The translations under genes and the position numbers were made by a program. A DNA stretch of 64,000 bases, from positions 6,755 to 70,754 of the forward strand of contig JAQBQI010000114.1 in NCBI GenBank assembly GCA_028287085.1, given 5' to 3'. Under the pieces are notes generated by a model, which was given only the letters and a program-made list of their open reading frames with translations, had not been told where the DNA came from and made no database searches. Shown in pieces: positions 2,752 to 35,474 of this stretch. Positions within the stretch are counted from its first letter, which is position 1. Each line of letters begins with the position of its first letter. The DNA comes from Myxococcaceae bacterium. Its GTDB lineage: Bacteria > Myxococcota_A > Polyangia > Polyangiales > Ga0077539.

Positions 2752-2964
2752 ATGAGCACCGGCACGACCCCATCATTCATCACTCCGATCCTCAAACATG
2801 CAGTTCGCCCCATTCCCGTCACGAAATCGCCGTTTGTGTACGACGAGCAGATGGGACTCAGTCGCTGGTTCGACGGCGACATTGGAGAGCCGGCGGCGCT
2901 ACGTCCCGAGTGCGCCGTGTGGCTGAAAACGAAGGTGGGGCACCCGGGCGGCGGTGAGGACTAA
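2752..2964 (+). CDS. Small ORF (70 aa), candidate precursor peptide of the ATP-grasp maturase
   Basis: It sits directly upstream of the ATP-grasp gene, and its stop overlaps that gene's start (gacTAATGtcg). The C-terminal half is rich in Thr/Ser/Lys and Asp/Glu (..VTKSPFVYDEQMGLSRWFDGDIGE..WLKTKVGHPGGGED), the residue classes cross-linked in graspetides. Confidence 0.35.
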   Translation: MSTGTTPSFITPILKHAVRPIPVTKSPFVYDEQMGLSRWFDGDIGEPAALRPECAVWLKTKVGHPGGGED

Positions 2965-3959
2965 TGTCGTTGAAGCGGATCGTCCTTCTTACTTCGCAGA
3001 CGGACCTCGCCGCTGACCTTCTGCTATTGAAGCTCCGATCGAAGGGTGCCGCTGTTGTGCGACTCAATGCGGAAATGTTTCCGCTTGGCATTGAGGCTGA
3101 TTTCCGGGTCCGGGACAAGAGTTGGTCGTTTCGTATGGGTAGCGATGTCCTACGATCCGCTGACATTAGCGCTGTGTGGTTTCGACGGTGGCCCGATCTT
3201 CAGACAGCCGGAATCGCTCCTGACTGGAGGGCCATAGTATGTCGTGATTCGATGGCTTTCTTGGAAGGATGGTCGATGCTCTGTGATGTGTTTTGGCTGA
3301 ACCGTCCAGAACGCGTTCGGACTGGAGAGAACAAGCTTGTGCAACTTGTTTACGCGCAAGAGGCTGGATTCCGCGTTCCGGAGACAGTCGTTGCAAACAA
3401 TGCTGCCGTAGTGCGGGACGTGGTGTCTTCTGGGCGCATTGCCTTATTTAAGCCACTGCTCTCCTCAGCACTTCGTGATGAGACCGTTGTGCAAATGCTT
3501 CAGGCCACAAGATTAAGGGATGAGCATCTCGATGATGAGTCAATTCGGGCATGTCCTGCGATTTATCAGACGATTGTTCCAGGGCAAGAGTGGCGTCTAA
3601 CGATTGTCGGTGGTCAGGTGTTTCCTGCGAGAATTTGCTGGACTCGTTCAGACACGAGTGTTGATGTTCACGCTGCGCATCCCGAGTGCGTCAGTATCGT
3701 AAGAGGAACGGTTTCTGATGAGGTCCGTAGGCAATGTCTTACGTTAGTACGGATGCTAGGACTTCACTACGCTGCGATCGATGCGATAGAATATGAAGGA
3801 GAGATGTATTTCCTTGAGTTGAATCCCTCTGGGCAGTGGGGGTGGATCGAGCAGGCAACAAATTATCCGCTTACCGACGCGCTCGCGGATTTGCTCATTT
3901 CTTGCGGTCAGCCGAAGAATCTTTCGTTGGTGCCATCCGGTGGTGTCAATGCGGACTAA
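2964..3959 (+). CDS. ATP-grasp enzyme, MvdC/MvdD-type RiPP (graspetide) maturase-like
   Basis: 331 aa. The N-terminus IVLLTSQTDLAADLLLLKLRSKGAAVVRLNAEMFP matches the pre-ATP-grasp region of peptide maturases. ATP-grasp core motifs are present: ALFKPL, EWRLTIVGGQVF, HYAAIDAIEYEGEMYFLELNPSGQWGW. GC is lower than in the flanks. Confidence 0.75.
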   Translation: MSLKRIVLLTSQTDLAADLLLLKLRSKGAAVVRLNAEMFPLGIEADFRVRDKSWSFRMGSDVLRSADISAVWFRRWPDLQTAGIAPDWRAIVCRDSMAFLEGWSMLCDVFWLNRPERVRTGENKLVQLVYAQEAGFRVPETVVANNAAVVRDVVSSGRIALFKPLLSSALRDETVVQMLQATRLRDEHLDDESIRACPAIYQTIVPGQEWRLTIVGGQVFPARICWTRSDTSVDVHAAHPECVSIVRGTVSDEVRRQCLTLVRMLGLHYAAIDAIEYEGEMYFLELNPSGQWGWIEQATNYPLTDALADLLISCGQPKNLSLVPSGGVNAD

Positions 3960-4936
3960 TGGCTTATTCATGTCATTTGGATCAACCTCGCGCCTATGAA
4001 GGATTCGAGGTGGGTTTCCACGTACGCACGCCCGAGGGGTCTGGAATGAAAGAGTTTCTGCTTCGAGATTTGCTCACGATTCCGCGTCAGTCAGACACCG
4101 ATAGGTCGATTGATTTGGGATACGAAGAAATGAGGGCAAGGGTGACGGGGGAGGTGGGACAGAGCTCGGATTCAACGTCGGAGGATGTTGCCTTCGAGGT
4201 GGCAAAACGAGTTTACGATTTCGAGTTCTCTGGCCGCGAGCGCAGGGAGAGACAAGTCCCTATTTATTTTGCGGCGGTTGGGTTGGTGGGAACGTTCACG
4301 TCTGGAATTATGTTGCCGGTACTTGCTCGGGATGAATTTCACCTCGGTTCACTATGGCTGGGCGTGCTTGGCGCGATCTGGTTGACCGGGACGTCATTCT
4401 TGTTGAGGTCGATAACTCTTGCCCTTTCCAGTTTGGGAGGTCAGACGTTTTATAGCGTGCTCGGTCCCGAGGACGCGCTCGCACCTACGAAGCGCGCACT
4501 CGCTGGTAAGATGATCGAATACTCCATCAAAAACTACCCGATATTCAATCGTGATGCATCGCGCCTTGCGGCGGCGGCGAATGCTGTAAGGAACGCGTTC
4601 GTTCTTCTGTTCGTCGTTGGGCCTTTGGTTTTTTTGATCGCGCGGCACTTTCAGCACGATTACCAGCGGTCAAGTCATCCGGTCGGCAGCACCGCAACAG
4701 GGTCGCCGGAAGTGGATGTGAGAAGCGATGTTGGGCCCGGTGGACAGTCGAGTTTGTCGACCTCAACGGGTAATAGTAGTAGTCACGATATCTCACGGCC
4801 TGGTGCGAGGGTCGATGGGTCGGCACCGCAGGGAGATGTGCACTTCCAGAATGTGACTTCGGAGGAGCACCCCGCCGTCCATGAAGCGCTTGCTCCCACT
4901 GCTCACCCGCCGAACGACCCCCACGTCCAGGATTGA
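3959..4936 (+). CDS. Hypothetical integral membrane protein coupled to the ATP-grasp gene
   Basis: The start overlaps the upstream stop (TAATG at 3957-3961). There are three or four hydrophobic segments (VPIYFAAVGLVGTFTSGIMLPVLA, LWLGVLGAIWLTGTSFLLRSITLALSSL, AFVLLFVVGPLVFLIA) and a Ser/Gly/Pro-rich C-terminal tail. An alternative start is MKEFLL near 4046. Confidence 0.55.
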   Translation: MAYSCHLDQPRAYEGFEVGFHVRTPEGSGMKEFLLRDLLTIPRQSDTDRSIDLGYEEMRARVTGEVGQSSDSTSEDVAFEVAKRVYDFEFSGRERRERQVPIYFAAVGLVGTFTSGIMLPVLARDEFHLGSLWLGVLGAIWLTGTSFLLRSITLALSSLGGQTFYSVLGPEDALAPTKRALAGKMIEYSIKNYPIFNRDASRLAAAANAVRNAFVLLFVVGPLVFLIARHFQHDYQRSSHPVGSTATGSPEVDVRSDVGPGGQSSLSTSTGNSSSHDISRPGARVDGSAPQGDVHFQNVTSEEHPAVHEALAPTAHPPNDPHVQD

Positions 4937-5259: not shown

Positions 5260-5399
5260 TTGGTCGGCGAGCGCGACGCGAGGTGCTCTCTCGTGAACTG
5301 GTTGGGGCGCTCCGCGCAGCGCCTCATGGAGGGGCGAACGTAGCTATCGACAGGGGCGTTCGTTGCCTATACGATCATGGGCATGAGGTTGGGGGCGCG

Positions 5400-8201
5400 A
5401 TGAGTCTCGCTACGTGGAACGGTCGGTTGCACGACCGGTACGCCGCTCTGAAGAAGGCGCGCGGGGACAGTCCGGTGTTCGCGATCGAGCACGGGCTAAC
5501 CTTGACGGAGCTTGCCGAACTCAAGCGGGACGTGAGCAGGGAGGTCATCATGCACGCGGACTGGCTCCCGTGGATCGTGTACGCCACCGAGTACGGCTAC
5601 GAGTTTGGCAGACAGGGGCACGTCGGCGAATACTGGACCCGGTTCAAGCGTGGGATGCCGCGGTGGGGTGACACAAACGCCCAGCGGTCGTTGATTCGCG
5701 ACTTCTTCAAGGCATTCCACACCCGCTACGGCGGGATTTCGCCGCCGGCTGATCGGTTTCCTGGTGCTGGGCCGACCATTATCGGCTGGCCGATCACGAA
5801 TGCGCTGCTGCCCGCGGACATGCGGTTGCATTTCGCGCGCGCAATGCGCGAGTTCGTACAGGACACATCGGCGTACAGCGCCGCGCAACTCCTCGCAGAG
5901 CCGAGCGCGCTCGAGGGGCGGTTACTGGGGTACGTCGAGCACGGGCGTTTAGCTCACATCAGCGGTGAACCCGCACACGTATTGGGGCGCCTTGCGGCTG
6001 CATTGTTGGACCCCCGAGTAGAGGACGAGAGGTACGTCTCCCGCGCCACGGTTGAGCGCATCCTCGCTGACATCGCGAAGGTGGACGCTTACGTGACGGG
6101 CGCGATCGGGCGGATCCGCACGCACATCGATGGCGTCATCCGCAGCCCTCATGGGCTCACCGCGGGCAACCCGTCCTCATCGGCATCGTCGCAAGAGAGC
6201 GCAATTCGCGCCAACTATGAACTTCGTCAGTTGAGCGGTGAATGGGTCCCATACGTCTCGCTCCCGTCGCTGGAGTCTCTCTCCGAGGTGCCGCGTCTCG
6301 GTAACGACCTCCGGTCTGCTCGATGGCGAATCACGGGCGAGCAAACGTGGCGCCCGGCGGGGAGTGCGCTCGCGGCGCAACCGCCCCGACGACTCGCTTC
6401 GATCCAAGGCGGTCGGCAACTCCTCGAGTTGGACGCCGCAACCGACGCGCTGCGCCGAGTGATCGATCCGCTCATTACGCCACCGACCCCTTGGCTCTTC
6501 CGCATCGCGTCAGATGGCGTCGGTCGCCGAGCCACATCGCTTTCGTTCCCCGCTGAGTTTGTAGCCGTCGGGCCGCGGAGCAGCACTCTCCCGCAGGTGC
6601 CTGGCGCGGCGCGTGCGCGCGTCGCAGGCGGTGAGGGCATCGCGTTTAGAACACCAAGCGCGGTCGGTCCCGGGTGGGAGGCGCTCGCTCGCGCGCTGCG
6701 CGTCGACGTGACACAGCATTTCGAGGTGTGGCCAGCGGGCCGCGCCGCCGCGGAGTGGACAGACGGTCACGGCGTCTGGATTGACGGGGACACGCCACGG
6801 TTGGGAGTGTCCACATCACTCCCGCTGCAGGCCCTCGAGATGTCGATCGGCCCAGAGTCGATCCGCCTCGAATCTCCACCGCCTCGTAACACGCCACTGT
6901 TCCTGTCCCTCGGCCAACTACCGGTCGGAGAGTATCGGCTCCGGTTGAGCGGTTCCACCGCTGACGGGAAGACCCTCAACACCGAGTTGAACGTCACCGT
7001 GCGCCCGACGAGAGCCCCTGGCGCTCTCCTGGCGGCCCTCGGGGTCGTCGTCGAAGTCCAGCGCCGGAGCGTTGCAGACGTTGTGCAAGGTGCGTTGAAC
7101 GGAGACATTCTCCTCGTCGCACGCGGTCCCGTGGGTCATCCAGTCGAGGCGACCGTGTCGCTCGTTTCGGTTACCGAGGAGCGAACCGATCTCAACCTCA
7201 CCGACCTCGCGTTCCCTGTCACCGAGGCCGCCTGGACTCGGGCGCTAAGCACCGCGATGGAGCGTGAGGACGACAAGCATCGCCTTCAGGTCGCAGCGGG
7301 CACCGCAGTGCGCGTGGAACTGAGCATCGACGCCCTCGAGTTCGGCCTCCACCGACGGGTGTTTGAGCGGACGCGTCCGCCCTTCGCTTGGCGCCTCAGC
7401 GGTGAGAGGGTAGCCCTCGCGTTCGAGGGAGAGATCTCTGCCGACCTCGACGTGTCCCTGTCTGAGTTCGCAAATCCAGCGGCAGGACCCCGCCCTGTCA
7501 AACTCCCTTACGAACTCTCCGAGCAGGCCCTTGGAGGCATCTTCGTGGCGCGGGGTACGGGCCACACGGCGACTGTGGCGCTCGTCGCTCCACGGCCATT
7601 CTCGCGGTTTCCGATGCCTCGGCCCGTTCTCCCGTACGCTGGCCAGCGCTTCGAGGCGCTCCGAGCGCGAGCAGACGACGTCAGTCGCCTCATTGGGATC
7701 TCGCGGTTGTGGAGGAGCGCGGGCATCCCTGTTCAGTCGTCGGCGTTCGCGCAAGCGGCCGTCATGCAGGGACTCGGCAAACTCCTAGTGCGGATGCTCG
7801 CGGGTGATGACATCTACCAGTTCACTCGGTCGAGGAGCGACTTCGCGAGGCTTGTGCCAGTTGCTCGTGATCTGTTCGGCAGGCCCTCTGCCTTCGAGGA
7901 CATCACGACCAAGCAGGTCCGGTCCATCTGGGAACCCGCGGCGCGAGGAACCCGCGGCGCCACGCTCCGCGACGTCGCGGCGGCCATGGGCCGGCCGGTC
8001 GCCGCAGATGTCCGTCTGGGAGCGGAGGTTGCGGAGGCTGCGATCGCGCTGGCCGAAGATGCCGGCGCCTTCCTGACCGCTGTCGAGGAACCTGTCCTCG
8101 CGCGCGTACTTCCGACGTTCTGCGATCGCGGTGGCGTTGTCGCATTGACCATCGCCGTGTTCACGCGAGAGAACTACCGACCGGTGCCCCAATGCCGCTA
8201 G
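5400..8201 (+). CDS. Large hypothetical protein (933 aa), first gene of the helicase operon; possible DruH-like partner
   Basis: Long ORF with protein-like composition. The chosen start is ATG 5400 (MSLATWNGRLHDRYAALKK). The 3' end overlaps the next gene by 10 nt. I recognise no catalytic motif. The DruH analogy rests only on its size and its position upstream of a DruE-like helicase. Confidence 0.7.
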   Translation: MSLATWNGRLHDRYAALKKARGDSPVFAIEHGLTLTELAELKRDVSREVIMHADWLPWIVYATEYGYEFGRQGHVGEYWTRFKRGMPRWGDTNAQRSLIRDFFKAFHTRYGGISPPADRFPGAGPTIIGWPITNALLPADMRLHFARAMREFVQDTSAYSAAQLLAEPSALEGRLLGYVEHGRLAHISGEPAHVLGRLAAALLDPRVEDERYVSRATVERILADIAKVDAYVTGAIGRIRTHIDGVIRSPHGLTAGNPSSSASSQESAIRANYELRQLSGEWVPYVSLPSLESLSEVPRLGNDLRSARWRITGEQTWRPAGSALAAQPPRRLASIQGGRQLLELDAATDALRRVIDPLITPPTPWLFRIASDGVGRRATSLSFPAEFVAVGPRSSTLPQVPGAARARVAGGEGIAFRTPSAVGPGWEALARALRVDVTQHFEVWPAGRAAAEWTDGHGVWIDGDTPRLGVSTSLPLQALEMSIGPESIRLESPPPRNTPLFLSLGQLPVGEYRLRLSGSTADGKTLNTELNVTVRPTRAPGALLAALGVVVEVQRRSVADVVQGALNGDILLVARGPVGHPVEATVSLVSVTEERTDLNLTDLAFPVTEAAWTRALSTAMEREDDKHRLQVAAGTAVRVELSIDALEFGLHRRVFERTRPPFAWRLSGERVALAFEGEISADLDVSLSEFANPAAGPRPVKLPYELSEQALGGIFVARGTGHTATVALVAPRPFSRFPMPRPVLPYAGQRFEALRARADDVSRLIGISRLWRSAGIPVQSSAFAQAAVMQGLGKLLVRMLAGDDIYQFTRSRSDFARLVPVARDLFGRPSAFEDITTKQVRSIWEPAARGTRGATLRDVAAAMGRPVAADVRLGAEVAEAAIALAEDAGAFLTAVEEPVLARVLPTFCDRGGVVALTIAVFTRENYRPVPQCR

Positions 8202-9268
8202 CGCTACTTTCCAAGGACGATCTGCTCGTCGAACTCAACCTCGCCTATGCCGGGGCACCGAGCGACGAGGATCTTGCGCACCTATTGCGTGAGGCGGCCT
8301 CGCGTGTGGCACGGTTCAGACCCGCGGAACTCAGGCAGCGCGTGCTCCGGCCGATGCGGTCGGTCTGGGATGAGCGTGGAGAGGAGCTCCGCGAACGCCT
8401 CGATGACCTCATCGATGCGCTCGTGTCTTACGGTGACCTCCTTGAGGTCGCGGCTGATGAGTCCCTCGGCGGGAGATACCTGTGCGTCGCCCCGCCCGCG
8501 TTTGTGACCTTGGCGAGCGGCGCGATGGTCCTGCTTGGGGGGTTGCCGAATCGTCCGCTCCCGCTCCCGGACGTTCTCGTGGAGCAGGTCGAACGCAATG
8601 GGCACGCGCGGTTGCTCCGCAGCGATGGCGCGCGCGAATTTGAACGAATCGCGAGGAGCGATGGCTGGATCGCGATTCCAGAGACGGCTTGGCTCGCCGC
8701 GCCTCTCGTGGAGCCCTGCAGTGCCTACCGTGCCCGCTTCAACGTGGCTCTCGCCGAGAAGGCTCAGGGGACCGCGGCCGGCGTCGAGGACCTGGTGATG
8801 ATCCGCCCCGATCGACCCGCCGATTACTACCGCGGTCGGTGGGGCCCTACAAGCGGGCTCACCGGGAGGCTTCTGGGTCGGCGCGGGCAACGCTATGGCG
8901 CTGCGGCGTGGTGCTACGTCGAACTGGAGGCAGGGCTCGCGCGGCGGCTCGTTGACCTCCCCGACCGCGCGGGTGGTGACCCGAGAGATACCGCCGCTGA
9001 CCAGGCCTGGAGGCTACAAGCTGCGATCGATGCCGAGCGCCACCTGGCGCCGCGGTGGAGTGTGAAGCCTGACGGTGAGGGCTGGACGATCGGCGTTTCG
9101 ATGCCACCGCCCCGATGGGCAGAGCGGCGGTTTGCGGCGGTGGGCCGTCGCGTTCGGCGCCCCGGCGCTGTGGTGACGTACCTTGTCGCCGAGCGCGCCG
9201 ACGCATTTGCTGCCGCGGAGTTCTATGCGACCCGAATGTGGGCGCAGCCAACGGAGTCGTCACAATGA
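8192..9268 (+). CDS. Hypothetical protein (358 aa), second gene of the helicase operon
   Basis: ATG 8192 lies inside the upstream stop region, and the stop TGA forms an ATGA overlap with the helicase start at 9265. No recognisable motif. Confidence 0.65.
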   Translation: MPLALLSKDDLLVELNLAYAGAPSDEDLAHLLREAASRVARFRPAELRQRVLRPMRSVWDERGEELRERLDDLIDALVSYGDLLEVAADESLGGRYLCVAPPAFVTLASGAMVLLGGLPNRPLPLPDVLVEQVERNGHARLLRSDGAREFERIARSDGWIAIPETAWLAAPLVEPCSAYRARFNVALAEKAQGTAAGVEDLVMIRPDRPADYYRGRWGPTSGLTGRLLGRRGQRYGAAAWCYVELEAGLARRLVDLPDRAGGDPRDTAADQAWRLQAAIDAERHLAPRWSVKPDGEGWTIGVSMPPPRWAERRFAAVGRRVRRPGAVVTYLVAERADAFAAAEFYATRMWAQPTESSQ

Positions 9269-12200
9269 GCACGGTGAGCGAGACAGTCTCGGAGTTGCGC
9301 GGCGCGCTCGGTTCTTACATCGAGGCGACGTACCACATCAGCGAACCAACGCTCATAAGGCAGCGCAGTGAGATCCTCACGAAGGACGGTGTCATCGCCC
9401 AGATTCCGTTCGTGGAGAGCACACCGCGATATGAGGCCGGCGCGGCTCTGCGCACGCTCAGCATTGGGCCCGCGAGCAGGGCGATGTTGGAAACCCTGTC
9501 TAGGAAGCCGCTCGTGGTCCACGACCCTCCGTACAAGCACCAGACGCAGTCTCTTGAGGAGGTGGCGGCGGGGCGCAGTCTGGTCGTGATGACCGGTACG
9601 GGCTCCGGAAAGACGGAGTGCTTCCTACTACCGATTCTTAGCAAGTTGGCTGAAGAGGCGTCGGCCCGCGGCGTCGCATTTGGTCATGACCACGCCGTGC
9701 GGGCGCTCGTTCTTTACCCGATGAACGCGCTGGTCAACGATCAGCTGGGTCGACTGCGGTTGATGTTTGGAGACAGCCGCGTTGTTGACCAGTTCATGGC
9801 GTGGTCCGGGCGCCCCGTTCGTTTCGCACGCTACACGAGCCGCACGCCATATGCGGGTGAGCGTGGCAAAGAGGGCGGCAGTAGCGGGGCGGAGCGCGAT
9901 GGGGTGTACCTGAAGGCGATCCGCGAGTACTATGTGTCCCTGCTCCGAAAGGCCGACTTGGACCCGAGCGGCACCCAGGCGGCCTTGGTGGCTGAGTTGA
10001 AGAAGCGGGGCCGCTGGCCAGCGAAGCCGGACATCGGCGAGTGGTTCTACGGCGAACGGGACTGGCGCTCGAAGGATGAGAAATATGCTCCGGAGTGGCG
10101 GAAGCGTGGTGGCGACAAGGGCTACAAGCGCGCTGTAACGTTGCCCCGGGACAGCGAGCTGATCACGCGGCACGAGGTCCAGGCGACGCCGCCAGACGTC
10201 CTCGTGACGAACTACTCGATGCTCGAGTACATGCTGATGCGCCCGATCGAGCGCTCGATCTTCGACGCGACCCGCGGTTGGCTTGAGCGAAACCCGAAGG
10301 AGCGCTTTCTCCTGGTGATTGATGAGGCGCACCTCTACCGTGGCGCGGCCGGGGCGGAGGTCGCGCTCCTGATTCGGCGTCTGGGTGCGAGGCTCGGTAT
10401 TTCTGCGGACCGGCTCCAGGTCATTTGCACGAGCGCCAGCTTCGGAGACTCGAGCAGGGCTCCTGCGTTCGCGGCGGACCTCACGGGGAAGCGGCCGGAG
10501 GATTTCGTCCCTGTTACGGGTGTACTCGATAGGCGCCCTGGGGCCGCCGAAGGCGATGCCGCTGAGGCCGACCTGCTCGCGGGCATTCCTTGGCTTGCGG
10601 CGTGTGAAGGGGACGCGGCCGCGCGCTGGGCCGCCGTGGAGCCCCTGCTCAATGCCCGTGGTGTTAGCCGCCGAGACGACGTCGCAATCGCGCTATACGA
10701 GGCCCTTAGCTTGTTCGCTCCGATGAGCCTCCTCGTGAATGTGACGATGGCCGGAGCGCGTCACGTAAGCGGTCGACCCTTGCGCGCGTCGGGGGACGAC
10801 ACGGCAGCGCTCAGCCTCGCTGAGACGGTGTTCCCGACCGCACCAGAGCGCGTCGCCGAGCAGGCCGTGACCGCGCTCCTTGCGCTTGGAAGCCTCGCCA
10901 AGCGAGACGCGGACCACCCGGGCCTCCTGCCGTGCCGCGTGCACGCGTTCTTCCGTGGGCTGCCCGGACTCTGGGTTTGCATTGACCAGAGCTGCTCTGC
11001 GCTTGCGCCTGAGCTGCGAGGGGGGAGTTGCGGCCGACTCTTCGCGCAGCCGCGGGAGCGGTGCGACTGCGGCGCGAAGGTCCTGGAGTTGTTCACCTGC
11101 CGCGCCTGCGGCACGGCGTATGCGCGCGCCTACGTCCCCGACCTTGAGCGGCTCGAGTCACTGTGGGCGGAGCCGGGGGCATCCTTTATGGCCGCGCCGA
11201 ACGACGGTGACGACGGCGCTCCTGACGTCGAGGCCCTTGCGCCGTTGGACTTGCTCCTCTCGAGGCCAGACGATGATCGGTTGAAGGACGACGAGGACCC
11301 CGTTGAGTCGGTGGATATCGATTTGACGACCGGACGGATCAACGCGTTGCACCGCGGACCTCGGACCCGGACAGTATGGGTGCGCGCTGATCGTAGCCCC
11401 AAACCGGACCGCCCGAGGGGAGCCGGCCACGACGCGGCGGCAGCGCAAGGAAATTCGAGGAGTCTCGAGAAGGCCGGCCGAGGTCAGTTCGTTCCGTGCG
11501 GTTCTTGCGGCGAACGGATGCGAGGCGGTCGATCTACGGTTCAGGACCACCAGACCAAGGGCGATCAGCCCTTTCAGGCGGTTGTCAAACGGCAGATCGA
11601 GGTGCAGCCCGCAGATCCGCGGCGCCCCGCGACACCGTTCGCGCCGTTGCGGGGCAGGAAGGTTCTCCTGTTCTCTGACTCTAGGCCGACCGCGGCGCGG
11701 CTGGCGCCGAACCTCCAGAACTACGCCTACCGGGACCTGACCAAGGCGCTGCTTTTGGTGGGGTGGCGAGAGCTGGAGTCTCAACCTGCGAGCCAGTGGG
11801 ACCTGGACGACCTCTACCTCGCCCTCCTCGTGGGGGCGTCGTCGCTCGACGTACGGCTCCGCCCCGCGCTGGGGCGAGAGGAGTCCTTCAGCGGGCCCGA
11901 CGCGCTCCGGCGAGCGCGCGAGACCCGCCGCGACATGAAGGCCGAACTGAGGCGTCTGACTCCTCCTCTATCGGTCATGCGAGCGCTGATCGAGCCGCTG
12001 GCCGACCGGTACTATGGGTTCGAGGCGCTGGCGCTCGCATCGCTCGCGGAGGCAGAGCCCGAACGGAGCGCGATCCTGCAGCTGCCGGCCATCGCTGGCA
12101 TCGTGGACAACGATGATCAGCGGCTCGCGTTGGCGCGCGCGTGGATTCGTGCCTACGCCGCCCAGTGTGGCGTTGCCATCTCGCACACCCACGACACGCT

Positions 12201-15200
12201 CAAAGGCGACGAGGTGCGCCGACACAAGTCGGGCGACTTTGAGGCGCTCAAGGCACTCCTCCGCGACAAAGCCGCCATCAAGCAGTTCAAGGCCACCTGG
12301 CTGAAGCCACTCCTGCACACCTTCACGACGGACGGATACCTCGACGGCGGTCGACTGCGGCTCGACCTCTCGCTTGAGTGGGCCTACTGCGACCGCTGTC
12401 GGGCGACGCAGCGCCCATTCCCCGGCCTCGCCCGCTGCATCGCGTGCGGCGCCCATCGGGTTCGCGTGATTCAGCCCGACGCGGATCCGGTGTTTCGGGC
12501 GCGGAAGGACTACTATCGCAGGGACGCGCGCGCGGCGATGCTTCAGCGACGCTCGCCCGTCGCTCCCGTTGTCCGGGAGCATACGGCCCAGCTGGGCGCC
12601 GCGGACAAGAGCGACGCCTACTCGAAGGCGGAGGAGTACGAACTCCTCTTCCAAGACGTGGATCTCGGCGTCGATGACCGCGGTCAACCTCGAGTCGCAG
12701 TCGACGTTCTGTCGTGCACGACCACGATGGAGGTTGGCATCGACATCGGCACACTCTCGGGCGTAGCCCTCCGGAACATGCCGCCGGCCCGCGCCAACTA
12801 CCAGCAGCGCGCCGGTCGCGCAGGTCGCCGGGGAAACACCATCGCGACCGTCGTCGCATTCGGCAGCGCTGACAGCCACGACGAGCAGTACTTCACATAT
12901 CCGGCAGAGATGATCCGTGGCCCGGTGCGCGACCCGAGGATCACTCTCGACAATGCCGACATCGCGCGCCGCCACGTGACCGCCTTCGTGTTGCAGCGCT
13001 ACTTGCACGAGCAGGTACGCGACGCTCAGGCGAATCGACGCGGCCTGTTTTCGGTGCTCGGAACCGTCGGGCAGTTCCTGACGTCGCAGGCGCCTCCGAA
13101 CGCGAGGGACTTCGCTCAGTGGCTGCGCGGCTCGGAGGCCGCCCTCGTGCGCGAGTTGGAGGCCTGGCTCCCGACGGAGCTCTCTGGCCAGGAGCGGGCG
13201 GCGATCGTCTCGGGGCTGGCAGACGCCACCGTGGCCGCGGTCGACAAGGCGCTCGCCGGCGCGATGATGGACCCCACCGCGGCCTCCGCCCGACCGCTTG
13301 GAAGTGCTGCGGGTTCCGATGACGGCGAGGCCGACGACGAGGCGCAGGACCACCCCGCTGCCGAGGGCGACGCGCGAGACGGCGCCTCGCGGGCCGCGGA
13401 GAACCTGCTGGATCGCCTCCTCTACGGCGGCGCGCTGCCACGCTACGCTTTCCCCACCGACGTCGGCACGTTCCATGTCTTCAAGCATGATTCCCCGCCG
13501 TTCCGGCCTAAGTTCGAGCACGCGCCCTCGCAAGGCCTCCCGATTGCGCTCACCCAGTACGCGCCCGGGAAGCAGATCTGGGTCGACAATCGACTGTGGT
13601 TGTCCGGAGCGCTGTACTCTCCGTACACGCCGGAGCGCCCTGCGGCGTGGCAGAGGCGTCGGCTCTACTTCGAATGCTCGAATTGCCATTTCGCGACTAC
13701 GACGGAGTTCGACCTGCAGAAGCGGGGCAGCGTGGGCGAGTGCCCGGCGTGCCGCTCGCCCGACTCCTTCGGTCCCGGGCGCCTCTGGCTTCGGCCACCG
13801 GGGTTCGCACATCCTGTCGACGCTGCGCCGGGGACGACGCCCGACGACGAGCCGGCGGTGAGCTACGCCACCCGCGCCAAGCTCGTCGCGGGTGGTCCGC
13901 CCGATGAGTCGCGGTGGCGAGATTGTGTGCCGTCCGTTCGGGTCGCGCCGCTGCACGAGCATCTGTTGGTCACGAATACGGGACCGCGCGACAAGGGATA
14001 CGACTATTGCACTCGCTGCGGCCGGATCGAACCCTCCGCGGGTGAGACGAAGCTGACCCGCTCGTCCCACACGCGGCCTTACCCGTCGCGAGACCCGAGA
14101 TGCCCCGGGGGCGGCACCACGGATGGCATCGTCCTCGGCACAGACTTCATCAGCGACGTATCACTGTTCAGATTGAAGCTCGCCGACCCCGTCCGACTGC
14201 CGCCAGGAACGCACGCGGCCGAGGTCGCCCTTCGCACTCTGTCTGAGGCACTTTCACGGGCCGCGTGCTCCGTGCTCGAGGTCGAGCCGAACGAGTTGCA
14301 GGCCGAATTTCGGCCGGCGCTCTCCGCGGGCGGGTTCGACGGCTCGGAGGTCGAAATCTACCTCTACGACACGCTGGCCGGCGGAGCCGGCTTCTCGCGA
14401 CGTGCCGCTGAGTTCGGGGCGAAGCTGCTCGAGGAGGCGCTTTCACTCTTGGAGGAGTGCGCCGCTGGCGGCGGGTGCGACACCTCGTGCTATCAGTGCC
14501 TGCGAAGCTTCAAGAACAGGCGTGATCATCATCTGCTTGACCGCCAGGTCGGCGCCGCGCTTCTTCGCCACCTCCTGCGGGGCGAGCCTCCAACGGTGAA
14601 CGCCTCTAGGCGTGAACACTTGCTGAGCCAACTGCACGACGACCTGCGCAGGATCGGCGTGGACGCGAACCTGGAGCGGGGGCGCCTCTGCGTGCGCGCC
14701 AACGGCGCGCTGGTGGGCGTTGTGGACGTTCAGAGCGCGCTCACCCCATACGCGGTGCTGGACCAGACGGGCGGCAAGGTGGTGGGCATCAGCGAGCTCA
14801 TGCTGCGTCTCAACCTACCGCGCGCCTCGGAGCGCGTGCTCGAGGATCTCAGCGTAGCAGGCGGCGAGGTCCTCCTGGGGGCGGCCGCGGCGGTGCGCGC
14901 TCCGGCCGTCGACGTGGCCTGCCGATCTGTGGCCGACCTTCCGACCTTGCTCGACAAGGACGCCCCCGAGGGCGACCTTCTGCTGCGTGTCCCGCGAGCG
15001 ACGATCGGTGGCGAGCAGGCATTCCGGGCCGGAGAGATCCTTGTCATCGATCGATGCGACGCGGATCCAGTGAGCGCGATCCCAGCAAATGCCGACAAGG
15101 CCCTCCTGCTGCTTCGAACCACGGGCTCGTTCATGCGAACGGGGGAGCCTTGGACCATCGCTTTCTGCGAACTGCGCTCGCGCGCGGGGGAGTCGGTGGC

Positions 15201-15303
15201 CTACCTCAGGTACAGGTCGCGAGAGTCCGACGCGATCCCACAGTGGGCCTCGCTCGATGAGCTGCGCGTCGTCGGTGTCGTCCGGGGACGCTACGAGGGC
15301 TGA
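9265..15303 (+). CDS. Giant DEAD/DEAH-box helicase fused to a DUF1998-type zinc/Cys domain (DruE-like; DrmA+DrmB-like)
   Basis: Starts MSTVSETVSEL. Walker A is VVMTGTGSGKTECF (9589-9618). DEAH box is LLVIDEAHLY (10321-10332). TSAS motif III is present. Helicase-C motifs: VLLFSDSRPTAARL, YQQRAGRAGRRG. The DUF1998-like Cys clusters are CTRCGRIEP and GGCDTSCYQCLRSFKNRRDHHLLD (14476-14520). About 250 aa of unassigned C-terminal sequence follow. Confidence 0.85.
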   Translation: MSTVSETVSELRGALGSYIEATYHISEPTLIRQRSEILTKDGVIAQIPFVESTPRYEAGAALRTLSIGPASRAMLETLSRKPLVVHDPPYKHQTQSLEEVAAGRSLVVMTGTGSGKTECFLLPILSKLAEEASARGVAFGHDHAVRALVLYPMNALVNDQLGRLRLMFGDSRVVDQFMAWSGRPVRFARYTSRTPYAGERGKEGGSSGAERDGVYLKAIREYYVSLLRKADLDPSGTQAALVAELKKRGRWPAKPDIGEWFYGERDWRSKDEKYAPEWRKRGGDKGYKRAVTLPRDSELITRHEVQATPPDVLVTNYSMLEYMLMRPIERSIFDATRGWLERNPKERFLLVIDEAHLYRGAAGAEVALLIRRLGARLGISADRLQVICTSASFGDSSRAPAFAADLTGKRPEDFVPVTGVLDRRPGAAEGDAAEADLLAGIPWLAACEGDAAARWAAVEPLLNARGVSRRDDVAIALYEALSLFAPMSLLVNVTMAGARHVSGRPLRASGDDTAALSLAETVFPTAPERVAEQAVTALLALGSLAKRDADHPGLLPCRVHAFFRGLPGLWVCIDQSCSALAPELRGGSCGRLFAQPRERCDCGAKVLELFTCRACGTAYARAYVPDLERLESLWAEPGASFMAAPNDGDDGAPDVEALAPLDLLLSRPDDDRLKDDEDPVESVDIDLTTGRINALHRGPRTRTVWVRADRSPKPDRPRGAGHDAAAAQGNSRSLEKAGRGQFVPCGSCGERMRGGRSTVQDHQTKGDQPFQAVVKRQIEVQPADPRRPATPFAPLRGRKVLLFSDSRPTAARLAPNLQNYAYRDLTKALLLVGWRELESQPASQWDLDDLYLALLVGASSLDVRLRPALGREESFSGPDALRRARETRRDMKAELRRLTPPLSVMRALIEPLADRYYGFEALALASLAEAEPERSAILQLPAIAGIVDNDDQRLALARAWIRAYAAQCGVAISHTHDTLKGDEVRRHKSGDFEALKALLRDKAAIKQFKATWLKPLLHTFTTDGYLDGGRLRLDLSLEWAYCDRCRATQRPFPGLARCIACGAHRVRVIQPDADPVFRARKDYYRRDARAAMLQRRSPVAPVVREHTAQLGAADKSDAYSKAEEYELLFQDVDLGVDDRGQPRVAVDVLSCTTTMEVGIDIGTLSGVALRNMPPARANYQQRAGRAGRRGNTIATVVAFGSADSHDEQYFTYPAEMIRGPVRDPRITLDNADIARRHVTAFVLQRYLHEQVRDAQANRRGLFSVLGTVGQFLTSQAPPNARDFAQWLRGSEAALVRELEAWLPTELSGQERAAIVSGLADATVAAVDKALAGAMMDPTAASARPLGSAAGSDDGEADDEAQDHPAAEGDARDGASRAAENLLDRLLYGGALPRYAFPTDVGTFHVFKHDSPPFRPKFEHAPSQGLPIALTQYAPGKQIWVDNRLWLSGALYSPYTPERPAAWQRRRLYFECSNCHFATTTEFDLQKRGSVGECPACRSPDSFGPGRLWLRPPGFAHPVDAAPGTTPDDEPAVSYATRAKLVAGGPPDESRWRDCVPSVRVAPLHEHLLVTNTGPRDKGYDYCTRCGRIEPSAGETKLTRSSHTRPYPSRDPRCPGGGTTDGIVLGTDFISDVSLFRLKLADPVRLPPGTHAAEVALRTLSEALSRAACSVLEVEPNELQAEFRPALSAGGFDGSEVEIYLYDTLAGGAGFSRRAAEFGAKLLEEALSLLEECAAGGGCDTSCYQCLRSFKNRRDHHLLDRQVGAALLRHLLRGEPPTVNASRREHLLSQLHDDLRRIGVDANLERGRLCVRANGALVGVVDVQSALTPYAVLDQTGGKVVGISELMLRLNLPRASERVLEDLSVAGGEVLLGAAAAVRAPAVDVACRSVADLPTLLDKDAPEGDLLLRVPRATIGGEQAFRAGEILVIDRCDADPVSAIPANADKALLLLRTTGSFMRTGEPWTIAFCELRSRAGESVAYLRYRSRESDAIPQWASLDELRVVGVVRGRYEG

Positions 15304-17957
15304 TGGCAACTATTCGACCTGATGTCGATCCGGGAACGATTCGTCCACTCTCTGAGCAGGCGGTGCTCCTCGCGCTCCGGGACCAACTCCCGGACGACTT
15401 CCTCGTGGTGCACTCGTTTCCCTGGCTCAAGCCGATGAGCGGGTCGCTTCGCGAGGGCGAGGCAGACTTCGTCATCATCCACCGGCGCCTCGGGATGCTC
15501 GTGCTGGAGGTCAAGGGCGGCGACCTGTTGTTCGAGAGTCATCAGTGGTTTCGGCTCAAGGCGGGAGGTCGGGAGAGGGTCAAAAACCCGTACGAGCAGG
15601 CTCGCGATAACATGCACTCACTCGTCGAGTACGTCGCGCGTCGAACGCCCGCGCCGCTGCTCTACGGCTATGCCGTCGTCTTCCCCGACCACGTCGCGGA
15701 TGGCACCTGGCCCGCCGACGCCGAGGCCTCTGCGACCATGCTGAACGCCGACATGCCGAACTTGGGGGCGCGAGTCGTCGCCGCGATGGAGGCGTGGGCG
15801 CGGCGCAGGAGACAGCTGACTGACGCTGAGTTCCAGCAGGTCGTTGACGCGCTGCTCCCTCGGCTGCGGCTGCGTCGCCCGCTTGGGCCGTGGGCGATCC
15901 AGGCGTCCGCGCGCCTGCTTGAGGTAACGGCGGGCCAGGTGCGCGCGCTCGACGCGCCGTGGGCGAGAGAGCGCGTGCTCGTGGAAGGCCCGGCTGGCTC
16001 CGGGAAGACCTTCATCGCGATAGAGCGCGCGTTGCGCGCCGCGGGCGACGGGTCGGAGGTGCTCTTCGTCTGCTTCAATGGAGCGCTCGCTGCCTGGCTC
16101 CGTGAGCAGCTCGCCCAGGACGTCGGGCGGTCCGGAGCTGCGAAACGAATTTCAGTACACCACTTCCACGCGCTCGCGCGGAACATCGCCCTGCAGGGGG
16201 GCGTGCCGTTCGTCGTGCCCGAAGAGCCGGCTGCGAGGGCGCGCTTCTGGGCGGAGGAGGCCTCGGGGCGGCTCGAGCAAGCGATGGACTTCGTCGGGAT
16301 GCGGTTTGACGTGATCGTCGTCGACGAGGCACAGGACCTCCGCACCGAGTGGTGGTATGCGATCCTAGGACTACGGCGTTCAGAGCAAGAGTCGCCTGTT
16401 TGGGTGTTTCGGGACGATCACCAAGCGCTCTTCGGTACCCCACCGCAAATTCCGTTGGAGTTTGAGCGTCACGAGAGTCTGGAGGAGAACTGCAGGAACA
16501 CGCGAGCCATTGCGGCGGGTGCCTCATCGATTGGGGGGACAAGTGCGCCGGCACGGTTCGGAGCGCCGGACGGACGCACCATCGAGGTGATCGAGGCATC
16601 AGGTCTGAACCACCGGTCGCTAGCGACGGAAATTGTCGAGCGGCTCCTGCGCGAGGATGGCCTCCAACCCGGCCAGATCGTCCTCATCGGCCCGAGAGCC
16701 CTCGCCAACGGCTCCCTCAAGGGCGCCCGAGAACTCTCCGGCGTGCCTCTGACCGACGACGCGCGCGAGTGGCGGCTTGGGGGCCGGATTCTCGTGACGA
16801 CAGCGCGCAAGTTCAAGGGCCTCGAGGCTGACGTGGTCGTGCTCTACGACTTGGGCGGTCTCTCTGTCGGCGAGGGGGCCTTCACCCGCGCGGATCTCTA
16901 CGTAGCAATGACCAGGGCGCGCGCGCACTTGATCGCGGTCTCGCACGACAGATCGACGCTCGAGGTTTTGCGAGGCGCTCAGCGCGTCAGCGAGGAGGCC
17001 GAGGTCTACGAAGTGATGGCGGCAGCAGAGGCGCCAGGGCGACGCGCGGAGACGTCTGAGGCCGTTCTGCTCGATCGTGTGCCATACCCGTTGGCCGCGC
17101 TTCACCGGCTCTCTCGCTCGAGGCACGAGGCCAGCGCGAGGCTGTTCATGTCGCTGCGCTACGCTGAGGGAGTCGCGCGGTTTAGCGCTCTTGTGACTCT
17201 TGCCCAGAGCGCGACGAGCGGAGCGAATGCAGCCGAGGCCCGTCGGTGGCTCGGCCTCGCGGGCGACGGCACGTTCGCGAGTGCTCGCGCGCTGCTGGAG
17301 GAGGCGACCGAGTTCCTCGTGCGGAACAGGCTCGTGCCGCTGCTCGGCCCGGAGGCGGCGGAGCCGCGGCGTCGCCTGATACAGGCGTTTCGTGAGTTGG
17401 AGGCCGTATGCGTGCAGTTCGGCGGCGAGAGGCCCCGCGTCCCGGAGCAGGTGGCCGACGCGGCGCTTGCGGCCATGGAGCCTCATCTGTCGTTGGTTCG
17501 GGCGCATGCAACGACGTTCGAAGCCCTGCAACTCGGCTACTTCGACGGAACGACCTCCAACGGCGACGGCGTCCACTCGCACTTCTACCGAGCCCGCGGT
17601 GCGGTTGAGGTCGACGCGCCCGTTCGTGTGCAACTCCGAGTCGCGCCACCGCACCGCGTCGCCCTTCTCGTTGACACGCGCGATGGGCGCGCGCTGCCGC
17701 TGGCGCCGTTCGTACTCTTCACCACGCAGCAGGACGAACCGACGGACACCCTGATGTGGCTCGCCCGGCGCTCGGACGCGCGGCGGGGCGAGTGGGAGTA
17801 TCATCGCCCGGTGGGCGCACGGCGGCTCACCCAAAAACTTGCCGGGGTCGCGAGGGGACAGTCCGTTTTGATCGAGGAGTATGTGGGCAGGTTGTCTCAG
17901 TGGTTGGGGTTGCACCCTCTCGTGGCCGTTGGGGATCTGCCTCGCTTGTCGGCATAG
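15303..17957 (+). CDS. NERD-domain nuclease fused to a UvrD/SF1-like helicase (884 aa)
   Basis: The start overlaps the helicase stop (TGATG). The NERD-like N-terminus is LVVHSFPWL..EGEADFVIIHRRLGMLVLEVKGG. Walker A is VEGPAGSGKTF (15988-16014). Walker B is DVIVVDEAQDL. The UvrD_C-type end is TTARKFKGLEADVVVLYD..LYVAMTRARAHLI. About 320 aa at the C-terminus are unknown. Confidence 0.85.
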   Translation: MATIRPDVDPGTIRPLSEQAVLLALRDQLPDDFLVVHSFPWLKPMSGSLREGEADFVIIHRRLGMLVLEVKGGDLLFESHQWFRLKAGGRERVKNPYEQARDNMHSLVEYVARRTPAPLLYGYAVVFPDHVADGTWPADAEASATMLNADMPNLGARVVAAMEAWARRRRQLTDAEFQQVVDALLPRLRLRRPLGPWAIQASARLLEVTAGQVRALDAPWARERVLVEGPAGSGKTFIAIERALRAAGDGSEVLFVCFNGALAAWLREQLAQDVGRSGAAKRISVHHFHALARNIALQGGVPFVVPEEPAARARFWAEEASGRLEQAMDFVGMRFDVIVVDEAQDLRTEWWYAILGLRRSEQESPVWVFRDDHQALFGTPPQIPLEFERHESLEENCRNTRAIAAGASSIGGTSAPARFGAPDGRTIEVIEASGLNHRSLATEIVERLLREDGLQPGQIVLIGPRALANGSLKGARELSGVPLTDDAREWRLGGRILVTTARKFKGLEADVVVLYDLGGLSVGEGAFTRADLYVAMTRARAHLIAVSHDRSTLEVLRGAQRVSEEAEVYEVMAAAEAPGRRAETSEAVLLDRVPYPLAALHRLSRSRHEASARLFMSLRYAEGVARFSALVTLAQSATSGANAAEARRWLGLAGDGTFASARALLEEATEFLVRNRLVPLLGPEAAEPRRRLIQAFRELEAVCVQFGGERPRVPEQVADAALAAMEPHLSLVRAHATTFEALQLGYFDGTTSNGDGVHSHFYRARGAVEVDAPVRVQLRVAPPHRVALLVDTRDGRALPLAPFVLFTTQQDEPTDTLMWLARRSDARRGEWEYHRPVGARRLTQKLAGVARGQSVLIEEYVGRLSQWLGLHPLVAVGDLPRLSA

Positions 17958-18477: not shown

Positions 18478-19524
18478 CTAGCATGTCAGTTCGGCGGGTA
18501 AGGTGAATCGTCCGAGCGGTAGTCGGTACACGTCTCCCACGCCTCGGGTGTAGTCCTTGGGAGGCGCGAACGAACGAGGGGTAGGGTAGACGACCTGCAA
18601 ATCGCGCAGGAATCCACAGGCGATGCCGATGGCCAAGGACTGCATCTTGCTTCCTGTGGGCGAGATCACCAACTTCTCGCGCTGTCCGTGCTCCGCATAC
18701 ACGTCTAGGATCAAGTTGAGTGTCTCACGATAGTCCAGTGTGCTAACGTTGAACTCCTCCCGGGCGGGCAACGAGTCAACTCGGTTCAATTCGCGGATAA
18801 CGTCTCGGCGCCAAGCGTTCTGCGCGTCGGGAGGAGTGCCGTGAACGATCGTAAAATATGATGCCTGAATCTCCGAGCAGACCGCTGCGAGTTGAGTCGT
18901 GTTCCAAGAGGGGAAGGCGATGACGCGCATGGGTTGGCCCTGCATCGCGACGCTCGAGAGTTCGGGCACGATCGTGAGTCCGAATACGCCAGAGGAGACG
19001 AACATCGTCACGCCAACCAAGTCGGCGGACTCGGAGAGAGTCTTCTCGACCTGCTCGCGTGTCGGTGGGTAGTCGAACGCGCTGCAGTACAAAACTTCGC
19101 AGAGCGCCGAGCGGCCACCGCGCACGATCGACGACACGAGTTGGACAATGAGGAGGCGCGACATGCCAGAAAGGTCGATGTGGATGCGATCGGCGGAGGG
19201 CACCTGCGCGAGGATGCGCTCCGCCGTGCCCGCGGGGCGCTCTCGGTCGAACGGGACCGACTCGAGCGTCGCCTGCGCGGAGGCGCACAGGCTGGCGACC
19301 TCGGTTCCTCGGTTCTCTGGGATCTCCGGAAGGTATCCGATGCACAGGACGCGAAAGCCGTGGCAACCAGAACGGACGGCGCGTCGTAGCACCTCAATAG
19401 CGCGATCCTCGAATCCCGCGCACATCAAGAGCACATCACCTACGCCTAGCTTCGGCGCAATCCCCACGTGCAGTTCGGGCTGGGACAGCCGCCGGAGCCA
19501 CTCATCGACACGGCAGACTCGCAT
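18478..19524 (-). CDS. Hypothetical two-lobed Rossmann-like protein (348 aa), possibly CARF/DUF1887-like
   Basis: Starts 3 nt after the kinase stop. It shows alternating beta-alpha patterns (VLLMCAGFEDRA..; RIHIDLSGMSRLLIVQLV..; MRVIAFPSW..; KLVISPTGSKMQSLAIGIACGF). The last block resembles the TGGTK.MS ligand-binding motif of CARF-type folds, but the match is weak. Confidence 0.6.
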   Translation of the reverse strand: MRVCRVDEWLRRLSQPELHVGIAPKLGVGDVLLMCAGFEDRAIEVLRRAVRSGCHGFRVLCIGYLPEIPENRGTEVASLCASAQATLESVPFDRERPAGTAERILAQVPSADRIHIDLSGMSRLLIVQLVSSIVRGGRSALCEVLYCSAFDYPPTREQVEKTLSESADLVGVTMFVSSGVFGLTIVPELSSVAMQGQPMRVIAFPSWNTTQLAAVCSEIQASYFTIVHGTPPDAQNAWRRDVIRELNRVDSLPAREEFNVSTLDYRETLNLILDVYAEHGQREKLVISPTGSKMQSLAIGIACGFLRDLQVVYPTPRSFAPPKDYTRGVGDVYRLPLGRFTLPAELTC

Positions 19525-19527
19525 CCG

Positions 19528-22035: not shown

Positions 22036-22061
22036 CGGTAGCTCCGCTGCCGGGTCTCGCG

Positions 22062-23276: not shown

Positions 23277-23278
23277 GG

Positions 23279-35386: not shown

Positions 35387-35394
35387 CGGTGGCG

Positions 35395-35417
35395 CCCGCT
35401 CCCGCTCCCGCTCCCGC
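35395..35417. repeat. Tandem hexamer (CCCGCT)x3.8 immediately upstream of the module X start codon
   Basis: The sequence reads cccgct cccgct cccgct cccgc. On the minus strand this is GGGAGC repeats, that is, three consecutive GGAG Shine-Dalgarno-like motifs 9-30 nt upstream of ATG 35386. Confidence 0.8.
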
Positions 35418-35451
35418 GATTTCTCTTGCCAACAGTGGCCGGGCAGCTACC

Positions 35452-35474
35452 ATCGCCGATTCGCAGAGACTAGA
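35452..35474. promoter_or_regulatory. Palindrome in the divergent intergenic region (candidate operator)
   Basis: CGCAGAGA (35452-35459), the 7-nt spacer ctagagt, then TCTCTGCG (35467-35474). The arms are perfect 8-bp inverted repeats, located between the two divergent operons. Confidence 0.4.

Follow-up and report, generated by a model that had tools for sequence, protein, structure and literature searches.

To our knowledge, type III is the only Druantia type whose mechanism has been studied, and we know of no nuclease that has been assigned to type I; among the named types, DruD is restricted to type I. The canonical type I system comprises DruA, DruB, DruC, DruD and DruE (Doron et al. 2018), with plasmid pUW163a of Ralstonia solanacearum serving as the reference locus here, and in one screen it was the broadest-acting system against 263 coliphages (bioRxiv 10.1101/2024.04.14.589459). 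Type I has also been linked to changes in N6-methyladenine (m6A) without a known methylase (10.1101/2024.04.14.589459). In type III, built from DruH and DruE, the DruE protein carries PLD-like nuclease domains and a dimerisation domain that are absent from the other types (PMC12458937; 10.64898/2026.05.12.722862). Against this background we analysed a stretch of 64,000 nucleotides (nt) from a Myxococcaceae metagenome-assembled genome (MAG; contig JAQBQI010000114.1), hereafter the window, and in particular an operon of four overlapping genes encoding a protein of 933 amino acids (aa) that we call X (gene 1), DruD (gene 2), the helicase DruE (gene 3), and a fusion of a NERD nuclease domain with a UvrD-like superfamily 1 (SF1) helicase (gene 4). 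We judge that the locus probably encodes an anti-phage Druantia system belonging to the type I lineage, of an early-branching form not described before, in which the NERD-helicase would be the likely DNA-cutting arm.

Like type I, the locus has DruD and a type I-clade DruE, with druD directly 5′ of druE and overlapping it, and the window also encodes a DruA (DUF4338/PF14236) whose membership in the system is uncertain. Unlike type I, it has neither DruB nor DruC, and an unrelated protein of ~950 aa, X, is found instead; its DruA is a long form encoded outside the operon, its DruE carries a C-terminal tail, and a NERD-UvrD gene is coupled to druE. Judged by these homologies, the locus falls outside strict type I membership, DruB and DruC being absent, and it would be classified most suitably as a hitherto undescribed variant of that lineage. 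With type III it shares a homologous DruE helicase, but it has no DruH, and the DruE3 models score about one-third of DruE1. Its composition also differs from that of PADLOC type IV (DruE, DruF and DruL). DISARM was likewise rejected, in agreement with a first-pass annotation made from the sequence: DrmA models match only weakly through the shared helicase core (2.8e-13), and no SNF2 or PLD gene occurs among the open reading frames (ORFs) examined, namely all large ones up to ~44 kb and a selection of those beyond. That annotation had also proposed a Druantia-related, undescribed combination with the NERD-UvrD gene appended as a component. All three proposals stand, given PADLOC matches to DruD1, DruE1 and DruA1, gene 4 homologues that directly follow DruE in all contexts with upstream DNA, and an architecture that fits no named system and does not appear in the literature searched.

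The X-DruD-DruE core and its relatives

The coordinates and overlaps first proposed for the four genes were confirmed. Genes 1 and 2 share a 10-nt overlap (ATGCCGCTAG at 8192-8201), genes 2 and 3 meet at ATGA (9265-9268), and genes 3 and 4 at TGATG (15301-15305), where stop and start overlap by 1 nt. Read from the sequence, all three junctions point to translational coupling. The proteins of genes 1 and 4 are identical to the NCBI entries JWM10_716 and JWM10_719, and the locus has a GC content of 0.65-0.70 within a GC-rich window. The ATG of gene 1 is preceded by GAGG and by a promoter-like site (Table 1) that was found once, against 0.0 expected in shuffles, and that represents a consensus match only.

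Gene 2 is DruD, as indicated by homology over nearly its whole length: the PADLOC model DruD1 (PDLC00010) matches residues 15-355 of 358 at 7e-73, and the protein is 31-38% identical to DruD across 80 related loci. Gene 3 matches the DruE1 model (PDLC00013) over residues 2-1861 (E=0, 1807 bits), compared with at most 625 bits for the models of the other types, DruE2, DruE3 and DruE4 (364-573 bits for the DruE3 models). Pfam places DEAD, Helicase_C and MZB (formerly DUF1998) domains in the protein, in keeping with the helicase and DUF1998 architecture originally noted. These matches identify gene 3 as a DruE of the type I clade, that is, a predicted superfamily 2 helicase of the YprA/MrfA family with an MZB/DUF1998 zinc cluster.

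Relatives were collected with a DruD alignment as query against GTDB genomes, each species being represented once, and the best 80 of 160 were inspected. The trio X-DruD-DruE is present in ~75 of these 80 species-level genomes, which come from Acidobacteriota, Chloroflexota, Gemmatimonadota, Myxococcota, Actinomycetota and Gammaproteobacteria. The layout of this group, here termed family A, is (HATPase_c_3)-DruA-X-DruD-DruE-(PDDEXK_1), with DruE 3′ of DruD in virtually all 80; examples are the RefSeq-annotated plasmid pNWAT01 of Nitrosococcus watsonii and Myxococcaceae GXIMD 01537. The PADLOC models DruA1, DruD1 and DruE1 clearly cover family A sequences. In most loci DruA is either long and accompanied by HATPase_c_3, lying upstream or convergent downstream, or short and directly upstream of X. 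A 410-aa PDDEXK_1 gene (Cas4-like, with a weak match to PADLOC DruK) is found directly 3′ of DruE in ~45 of the 80 loci, where it occupies the position of gene 4. The X, DruD and DruE of the window are orthologous to those of family A and occur in the same order with the same overlaps. Unlike the window, family A has either the Cas4-like PD-(D/E)xK gene or nothing after DruE, and never a NERD-helicase (0 of 80); its DruE is tail-less, and its DruA usually lies upstream with a HATPase partner.

Homologues of X (23-30% identity, ~950-1000 aa) lie directly upstream of DruD in ~75 of the 80 loci, with a similar short overlap, which marks X as a conserved partner of DruD and DruE in the position of DruB and DruC. 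The core predicted from these comparisons is X-DruD-DruE with DruA nearby, X taking the place that DruB and DruC have in canonical type I. No Pfam, NCBIfam or PADLOC model matches gene 1 itself, even at E<=10, and across the X family 0 of 51 members match any PADLOC or Pfam model. X was considered as DruB and as DruC, and both identities were rejected: neither gene 1 nor 50 relatives match the corresponding PADLOC models, hhalign probabilities are 0.3% and 0.1%, respectively, and BLASTP shows no relation. The canonical references used for this comparison, taken from the five-gene systems of Ralstonia pUW163a and P. putida pKF715A, match PADLOC models at 1e-203 to 1e-272; as controls, canonical DruB matches PDLC00005 at 4e-203 and canonical DruC matches PDLC00006 at 2e-257. 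At the sequence level DruH was rejected as well, with no PADLOC match for gene 1 (E<=10) or for the 51 family members and nothing among PDB sequences. A search of the X profile against PDB sequences, which do include the DruE-like helicase entries 9tu7 and 9wae, produced no match that rose above noise (the best, at E 0.015, was an unrelated human protein). A profile search for further X homologues returned the same 6 proteins, and an AlphaFold2 model built on a 6-sequence alignment was unusable, with a predicted local distance difference test score (pLDDT) of 41.8.

A tailed DruE coupled to a NERD-UvrD gene

The reading of gene 4 as a NERD and SF1 helicase fusion is upheld by Pfam matches to NERD (1.6e-11), UvrD-helicase and UvrD_C_2, and by the PADLOC model RTasNERD-Hel (1.5e-43). 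In 27 homologues the catalytic residues D55, E69 and K71 never vary, nor do the Walker A motif GxGKT (232-236) and DEAQD (341-345). A search with residues 1-565 retrieved 1459 homologues, of which the best 120 are all ~575-585 aa long and 41-47% identical. DruE lies directly upstream in 8 of the 8 contexts that were annotated individually, representing 6 distinct loci (plasmids of Leisingera and Paracoccus, Burkholderia vietnamiensis, two loci from metagenomes along with their near-duplicates, and the loci of the two closest homologues); these DruE-like helicases are ~2050-2105 aa, although one is split and another is truncated where its contig ends. Metagenomes were also scanned with the NERD-helicase as centre, and the best 80 of more than 530 relatives were inspected. 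Every locus with upstream DNA (~60 of 80) has DruE directly upstream, in most at a stop-to-start distance of 0-5 nt. Because its homologues directly follow a DruE wherever upstream DNA exists, the NERD-UvrD gene does not appear to be a chance neighbour; rather, this recurrent coupling marks it as an integral component and a predicted dedicated partner of DruE.

These NERD-linked loci are here termed family B. Their usual form, B1, has the layout DruE (~2060-2100 aa)-NERD/UvrD (~578 aa)-333 aa (DruD-like), convergent with SNF2-~1000 aa (X-like)-(351 aa)-DruA, and the smaller form, B2, consists of DruE-NERD/UvrD with HATPase-DruA nearby; examples are a plasmid of Leisingera sp. S132, Burkholderia vietnamiensis and Paracoccus versutus pTAV4. 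By profile comparison, the ~1000-aa protein is a homologue of X (hhalign probability 100%, E 1.8e-41, 743 columns) and the 333-aa protein a homologue of DruD (probability 95.5%, E 1.5e-8). Since homologues of X and DruD, and also DruA, are present, family B appears to represent this type of machinery, extended by two helicases. The window resembles family B in having a NERD-UvrD gene directly after a tailed DruE; X, DruD, DruA and the 388-aa protein described below also have homologues there. It differs in gene order, in the SNF2 helicase of family B, in the X and DruD of family B, which are very divergent from those of the window, and in the family B NERD-helicase, which measures 555-586 aa and has no C-terminal domain. 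The convergent arrangement of SNF2 and X-like genes with the DruE operon in B1 has no counterpart here: no SNF2 gene occurs among the window ORFs examined, and X lies upstream of DruD, in the family A order.

Synteny of the operon in other genomes, as envisaged in the first-pass annotation, holds in part: the first three genes keep their order in more than 80 genomes (~75 of the 80 GTDB loci inspected), and all four protein families co-occur in family B loci, although in a different order there, but the full order X-DruD-DruE-NERD/UvrD was found in no other locus inspected. Neither the family A nor the family B architecture is described or named in the literature searched, which included a search for Druantia together with NERD.

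The ORFs of NERD-linked DruE proteins span 1986-2229 codons in 39 of 41 loci, compared with 1843-1860 aa for family A DruE. The window DruE is 47-52% identical to family A DruE. DruE proteins of family A and of the canonical system can be aligned with the window protein only as far as about residue 1862, whereas family B DruE aligns to residues 2004-2010, and among the loci inspected the window has the sole family A-type DruE with a tail. A neighbour-joining (NJ) tree was computed from 47 DruE sequences, 25 of them from family A (1749 columns, rooted on canonical type I). In 100 of 100 bootstraps the 25 family A sequences together form the sister group of the window DruE, and moving outward from this group the tree branches into B1, then a haloarchaeal form, then B2, and then the canonical type I root. 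On this tree the window DruE is the basal branch of family A. A per-100-aa identity profile revealed no recombination breakpoint in DruE, which is family A-like over the whole shared length.

Loci on the edge of this comparison contribute two further observations. Some family B loci have a DNA methyltransferase gene just 5′ of DruE (a C5 methylase and an MmeI-like enzyme; loci L093, 1-3489, and L095, 1-4038), which may bear on the reported connection between type I Druantia and methylation. On a plasmid of a Natrialbaceae archaeon, DruE (1807 aa) is accompanied by a DruA of 705 aa on the opposite strand and by two proteins of 413 and 608 aa, the larger of which weakly matches the DruD model (7e-6); this haloarchaeal Druantia-like variant may represent another way to fill the DruB, DruC and DruD positions.

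Among described systems, the closest analogue of the terminal SF1 helicase-nuclease would be ArmD of ARMADA type II, whose operon likewise terminates in a fusion of a UvrD/GajB-like SF1 helicase with a nuclease-type domain and includes a YprA-family helicase from the larger clade of DruE (Bell et al. 2025, PMC12458937). Unlike the window, ARMADA type II has a BrxHII-like helicase, a PglX methyltransferase and a RelE-like rather than a NERD domain, and it has no DruA, DruD or X. The resemblance of gene 4 to Nhi-type defences that had been suggested did not hold up, given that its homologues are coupled to DruE and that no Nhi model is among its PADLOC matches; a family B NERD-helicase homologue scores no better than 1.8e-5 against Nhi, in a stretch of ~50 residues at the P-loop.

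The 884-aa fusion of gene 4 was seen in no other locus; the NERD-helicases measure 555-586 aa, and none exceeds 586 aa in 78 metagenome loci. Its C-terminal domain belongs to a family of ~290 aa with 56 phmmer matches among 1.84 billion representatives. In 9 of 10 proteins tested the domain occurs beside a Ser/Thr kinase (Pkinase) domain, usually in N-terminal position, and in the tenth with a STAND-type NTPase; the kinases that carry it resemble PD-T4-6 defence kinases. AlphaFold2 modelled the domain from 17 sequences as a helical bundle followed by a beta domain (pLDDT 85.5; predicted template modelling score 0.86), for which there was no PDB fold match by Foldseek, no PDB sequence by profile and no Pfam model. 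Met574 lies 22 residues ahead of a conserved PYP motif, with the same spacing as in free-standing homologues, so the domain would once have been a separate ORF or the N-terminus of a protein. Its joining to the helicase may be a genuine gene fusion or may result from an error in the MAG assembly. The family motif R-N-x-x-x-H has the form of the HEPN R-x4-H signature, and the gene 4 copy, which has C703 at the R position and G708 at the H position, would, on this likeness, be catalytically dead. The domain was probably taken from defence-type Ser/Thr kinases and, because the conserved R..H motif is missing, is most likely a sensing or regulatory add-on. Its identity with the family B 333-aa protein, which would have made gene 4 a NERD-helicase/DruD-like fusion, was tested and rejected.

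Two further genes are candidate members of the system on homology. The long-form DruA, a probable fifth component, is encoded convergently with the operon, 6.6 kb past gene 4 and separated from it by a four-gene cassette; convergent DruA genes also occur in nine of the related loci. The window protein is 42% identical to family B DruA (448 bits) and 35% identical to family A DruA (305 bits). In most relatives the long form is paired with HATPase_c_3, a MORC-like protein with a weak match to PADLOC MzaB, and this partner is absent from the window (tblastn, E<1e-5). The neighbouring 388-aa protein, win388, has no Pfam or PADLOC match and is 52.5% identical to the family B 351-aa gene of locus L093 (18834-19889). 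Its homologues adjoin DruA or the HATPase gene in five loci, making it a probable accessory of the system. Its candidacy as a second DruD was rejected, as the two proteins have no relation.

Table 1. Features of the window, with positions counted from its first letter.
Feature	Position	Strand	Description
Promoter-like site	5347-5375	+	sigma-70-like TCGACA-17-TACGAT, ~25 nt 5′ of gene 1; consensus match only
Gene 1 (X)	5400-8201	+	933 aa from ATG; ORF open from 5256
Gene 2 (DruD)	8192-9268	+	358 aa
Gene 3 (DruE)	9265-15303	+	2012 aa from ATG at 9265
DruE C-terminal tail	14848-15300	+	aa ~1862-2012, ~150 aa; no counterpart in family A or canonical DruE
Gene 4 (NERD-UvrD)	15303-17957	+	884 aa
Gene 4, N-terminal part	15303-17021	+	NERD (PD-(D/E)xK, aa 17-127) and UvrD-like SF1 helicase (aa ~209-550); Pfam, PADLOC
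Gene 4, C-terminal domain	17022-17957	+	from Met574, ~310 aa (aa ~574-884); kinase-associated domain family
CARF-like protein	within cassette 18478-24214	-	348 aa
Ser/Thr kinase and ORC/Cdc6-like AAA ATPase fusion	within cassette 18478-24214	-	835 aa; PADLOC CARF_STK_AAA 4e-23
N6/N4 DNA methyltransferase	22062-23276	-	404 aa; 4 kb from the operon
ThyX	within cassette 18478-24214	-	311 aa
DruA, long form	24549-26561	-	670 aa; PADLOC DruA1 (PDLC00001) 2.1e-131; Pfam PF14236 1.2e-28
win388	26583-27749	-	388 aa; homologue of the family B 351-aa gene near DruA

Proposed mechanism and competing readings

The DruE of type III is a 3′-5′ helicase that loads on free ends or on junctions of single- and double-stranded phage DNA, and the two preprints on this system disagree on its nuclease activity (10.64898/2026.05.12.722862; 10.64898/2026.05.13.724313). 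In type I and type II DruE, a Vsr-like nuclease domain is predicted to be inactivated (Bell et al., PMC12458937). By analogy with type III, the window DruE would find, engage and unwind invading DNA. Insofar as the nuclease of type I DruE is predicted to be inactive, cleavage would be delegated in trans to the coupled gene 4, whose PD-(D/E)xK nuclease and SF1 helicase would degrade the DNA opened by DruE. Gene 4 probably docks on the ~150-aa DruE tail, and X, DruD, DruA and the 388-aa protein are presumed to be sensing, licensing or targeting subunits. As to how the arrangement arose, retention would be the simplest reading: the tailed DruE and NERD-UvrD would be ancestral to the branch, with the window as the earliest family A branch to keep both. 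In crown family A, the NERD-UvrD arm would have been swapped for the Cas4-like PD-(D/E)xK gene at the same position, and the tail lost.

Several points weigh against this interpretation. The mechanism rests on analogy with type III DruE, whose domains differ, and the similarity of the window tail to family B tails is only moderate (hhalign E 1.7e-4, probability 49%). Both the four-gene order and the 884-aa fusion are unique among the loci inspected; the locus may be a one-off rearrangement, or the fusion an assembly error of the MAG. The membership of DruA is uncertain, as the gene lies 6.6 kb off behind the cassette and adjoins a Dnd/Ssp FGH-like triplet, and a second DruA in the window (35373-37739) has a similar setting beside Dnd/Ssp FGH-like genes; furthermore, the HATPase_c_3 partner that accompanies long DruA in most relatives is missing. 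The DruE phylogeny was computed by simple NJ, with canonical type I as the root, and the loci looked at were only the best 80 of 160 from GTDB and the best 80 of more than 530 from metagenomes.

The rival that survives best is a recent chimera, in which recombination with a family B system would have supplied a family A system with the DruE 3′ end, the NERD-helicase gene, DruA and the gene for the 388-aa protein. Such an exchange would account for the window DruA (42% against 35%) and win388 (52.5%) being closer to family B than to family A, and for the closest gene 4 homologues being found in B1 loci; the IS630 fragments and integrases also mark the region as mobile. However, the identity profile of DruE is without a breakpoint, and its tail reaches just 23-27% identity to the tails of family B, which is no higher than for the remainder of DruE. 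Gene 4 is only 41-47% identical to any family B NERD-helicase, so any transfer would have to be ancient, and the position of DruE basal to family A (100 of 100 bootstraps) fits retention. We regard a recent chimera as unlikely; an ancient one is conceivable.

It is more doubtful still that the locus is a decaying or non-functional remnant, disrupted by insertions and without parts that its relatives need. The lower-GC cassette does part DruA from the operon, no HATPase_c_3 gene is present, IS630 fragments and low-GC genes lie directly upstream, and the motif of the gene 4 C-terminal domain has been lost. Nevertheless, all four ORFs are intact and long (933, 358, 2012 and 884 aa), catalytic motifs are kept and the junctions are coupled, and several family A loci also do without the HATPase gene or have a convergent DruA.

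A chance adjacency between a Druantia-like trio and an independent, single-gene NERD-helicase defence has very little in its favour. Single-gene nuclease-helicase defences exist, the four-gene order is unique, and the best PADLOC models for gene 4 come from other contexts (a DRT-associated NERD-helicase and the candidate C3a187), but the stop and start of genes 3 and 4 overlap by 1 nt, homologues begin 0-5 nt after DruE in contexts with upstream DNA, and the DruE tail co-varies with the NERD-helicase.

Finally, the first-pass annotation had likened the locus to a two-gene type III DruH-DruE pair with an inserted 358-aa gene and an Nhi-like effector, as an uncharacterised ~930-aa protein lies upstream of a DruE-like helicase and DruB and DruC are missing; this reading keeps almost no probability and is already refuted as to subtype, because the 358-aa protein is DruD and hence no insertion into such a pair, DruE1 scores 1807 bits against 573 for DruE3, DruA is present, gene 1 and 50 relatives match no PADLOC model, DruH included, and gene 4 has no Nhi match.

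Genomic neighbourhood and implications

The operon lies in a defence-island setting with DndH-like, CARF/kinase and methyltransferase genes, integrases and insertion sequence (IS) elements. Between gene 4 and DruA, the minus strand carries the four-gene cassette (18478-24214), which has a lower GC content (0.61-0.63) and may be a separate defence module or an insertion; its products are listed in Table 1. The earlier statement that no methyltransferase accompanies the operon is correct inside 5400-17957, but an N6/N4 DNA methyltransferase is encoded in this cassette.

Beyond it lie two divergent modules, 27665-35386 on the minus strand and 35373-43903 on the plus strand, each combining DruA with Dnd/Ssp FGH-like genes. 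The minus-strand module encodes an SspF-like protein (542 aa), a 469-aa protein and a DndH-like protein (1565 aa), followed by win388 and the first DruA. The plus-strand module encodes the second DruA (788 aa, PADLOC 2e-106), an SspF-like protein (536 aa), an SspG-like protein (520 aa) and a 1039-aa protein. We know of no description of this association between DruA and FGH-like genes. On the other side of the operon, fragments of IS630-family transposases occur on both strands at ~330-2570, and an MvdD-like ATP-grasp gene (2964-3959) and a membrane protein gene (3836-4936) have a much lower GC content of 0.52-0.56. The Druantia operon is thus bordered on its left by foreign DNA. Two tyrosine integrase genes, at 45636-46679 (minus strand) and 57847-58989 (plus strand), are consistent with a mobile defence island.

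More tentatively than the assignment of the locus itself, we propose that the tailed DruE and NERD-UvrD constitute the ancestral effector module of a large, unnamed type I-like branch, comprising hundreds of loci with a core of DruA, X, DruD and DruE and without DruB or DruC. The window would then be transitional, preceding the swap to the Cas4-like gene, and type I-like Druantia systems would be two-helicase machines with exchangeable trans nucleases. Under the same proposal, gene 4 would have captured a degenerate kinase-associated domain resembling HEPN (R-x4-H), possibly as a new trigger input.

For the Druantia family, these comparisons suggest that DruB and DruC are not universal, as an unrelated protein, X, takes their place across many phyla, and they narrow the conserved core to DruA, DruD and DruE. 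They also point to a candidate seat of the cutting activity in a separate gene just 3′ of druE, either NERD-UvrD or the Cas4-like PD-(D/E)xK gene, with the DruE tail as a candidate docking element.

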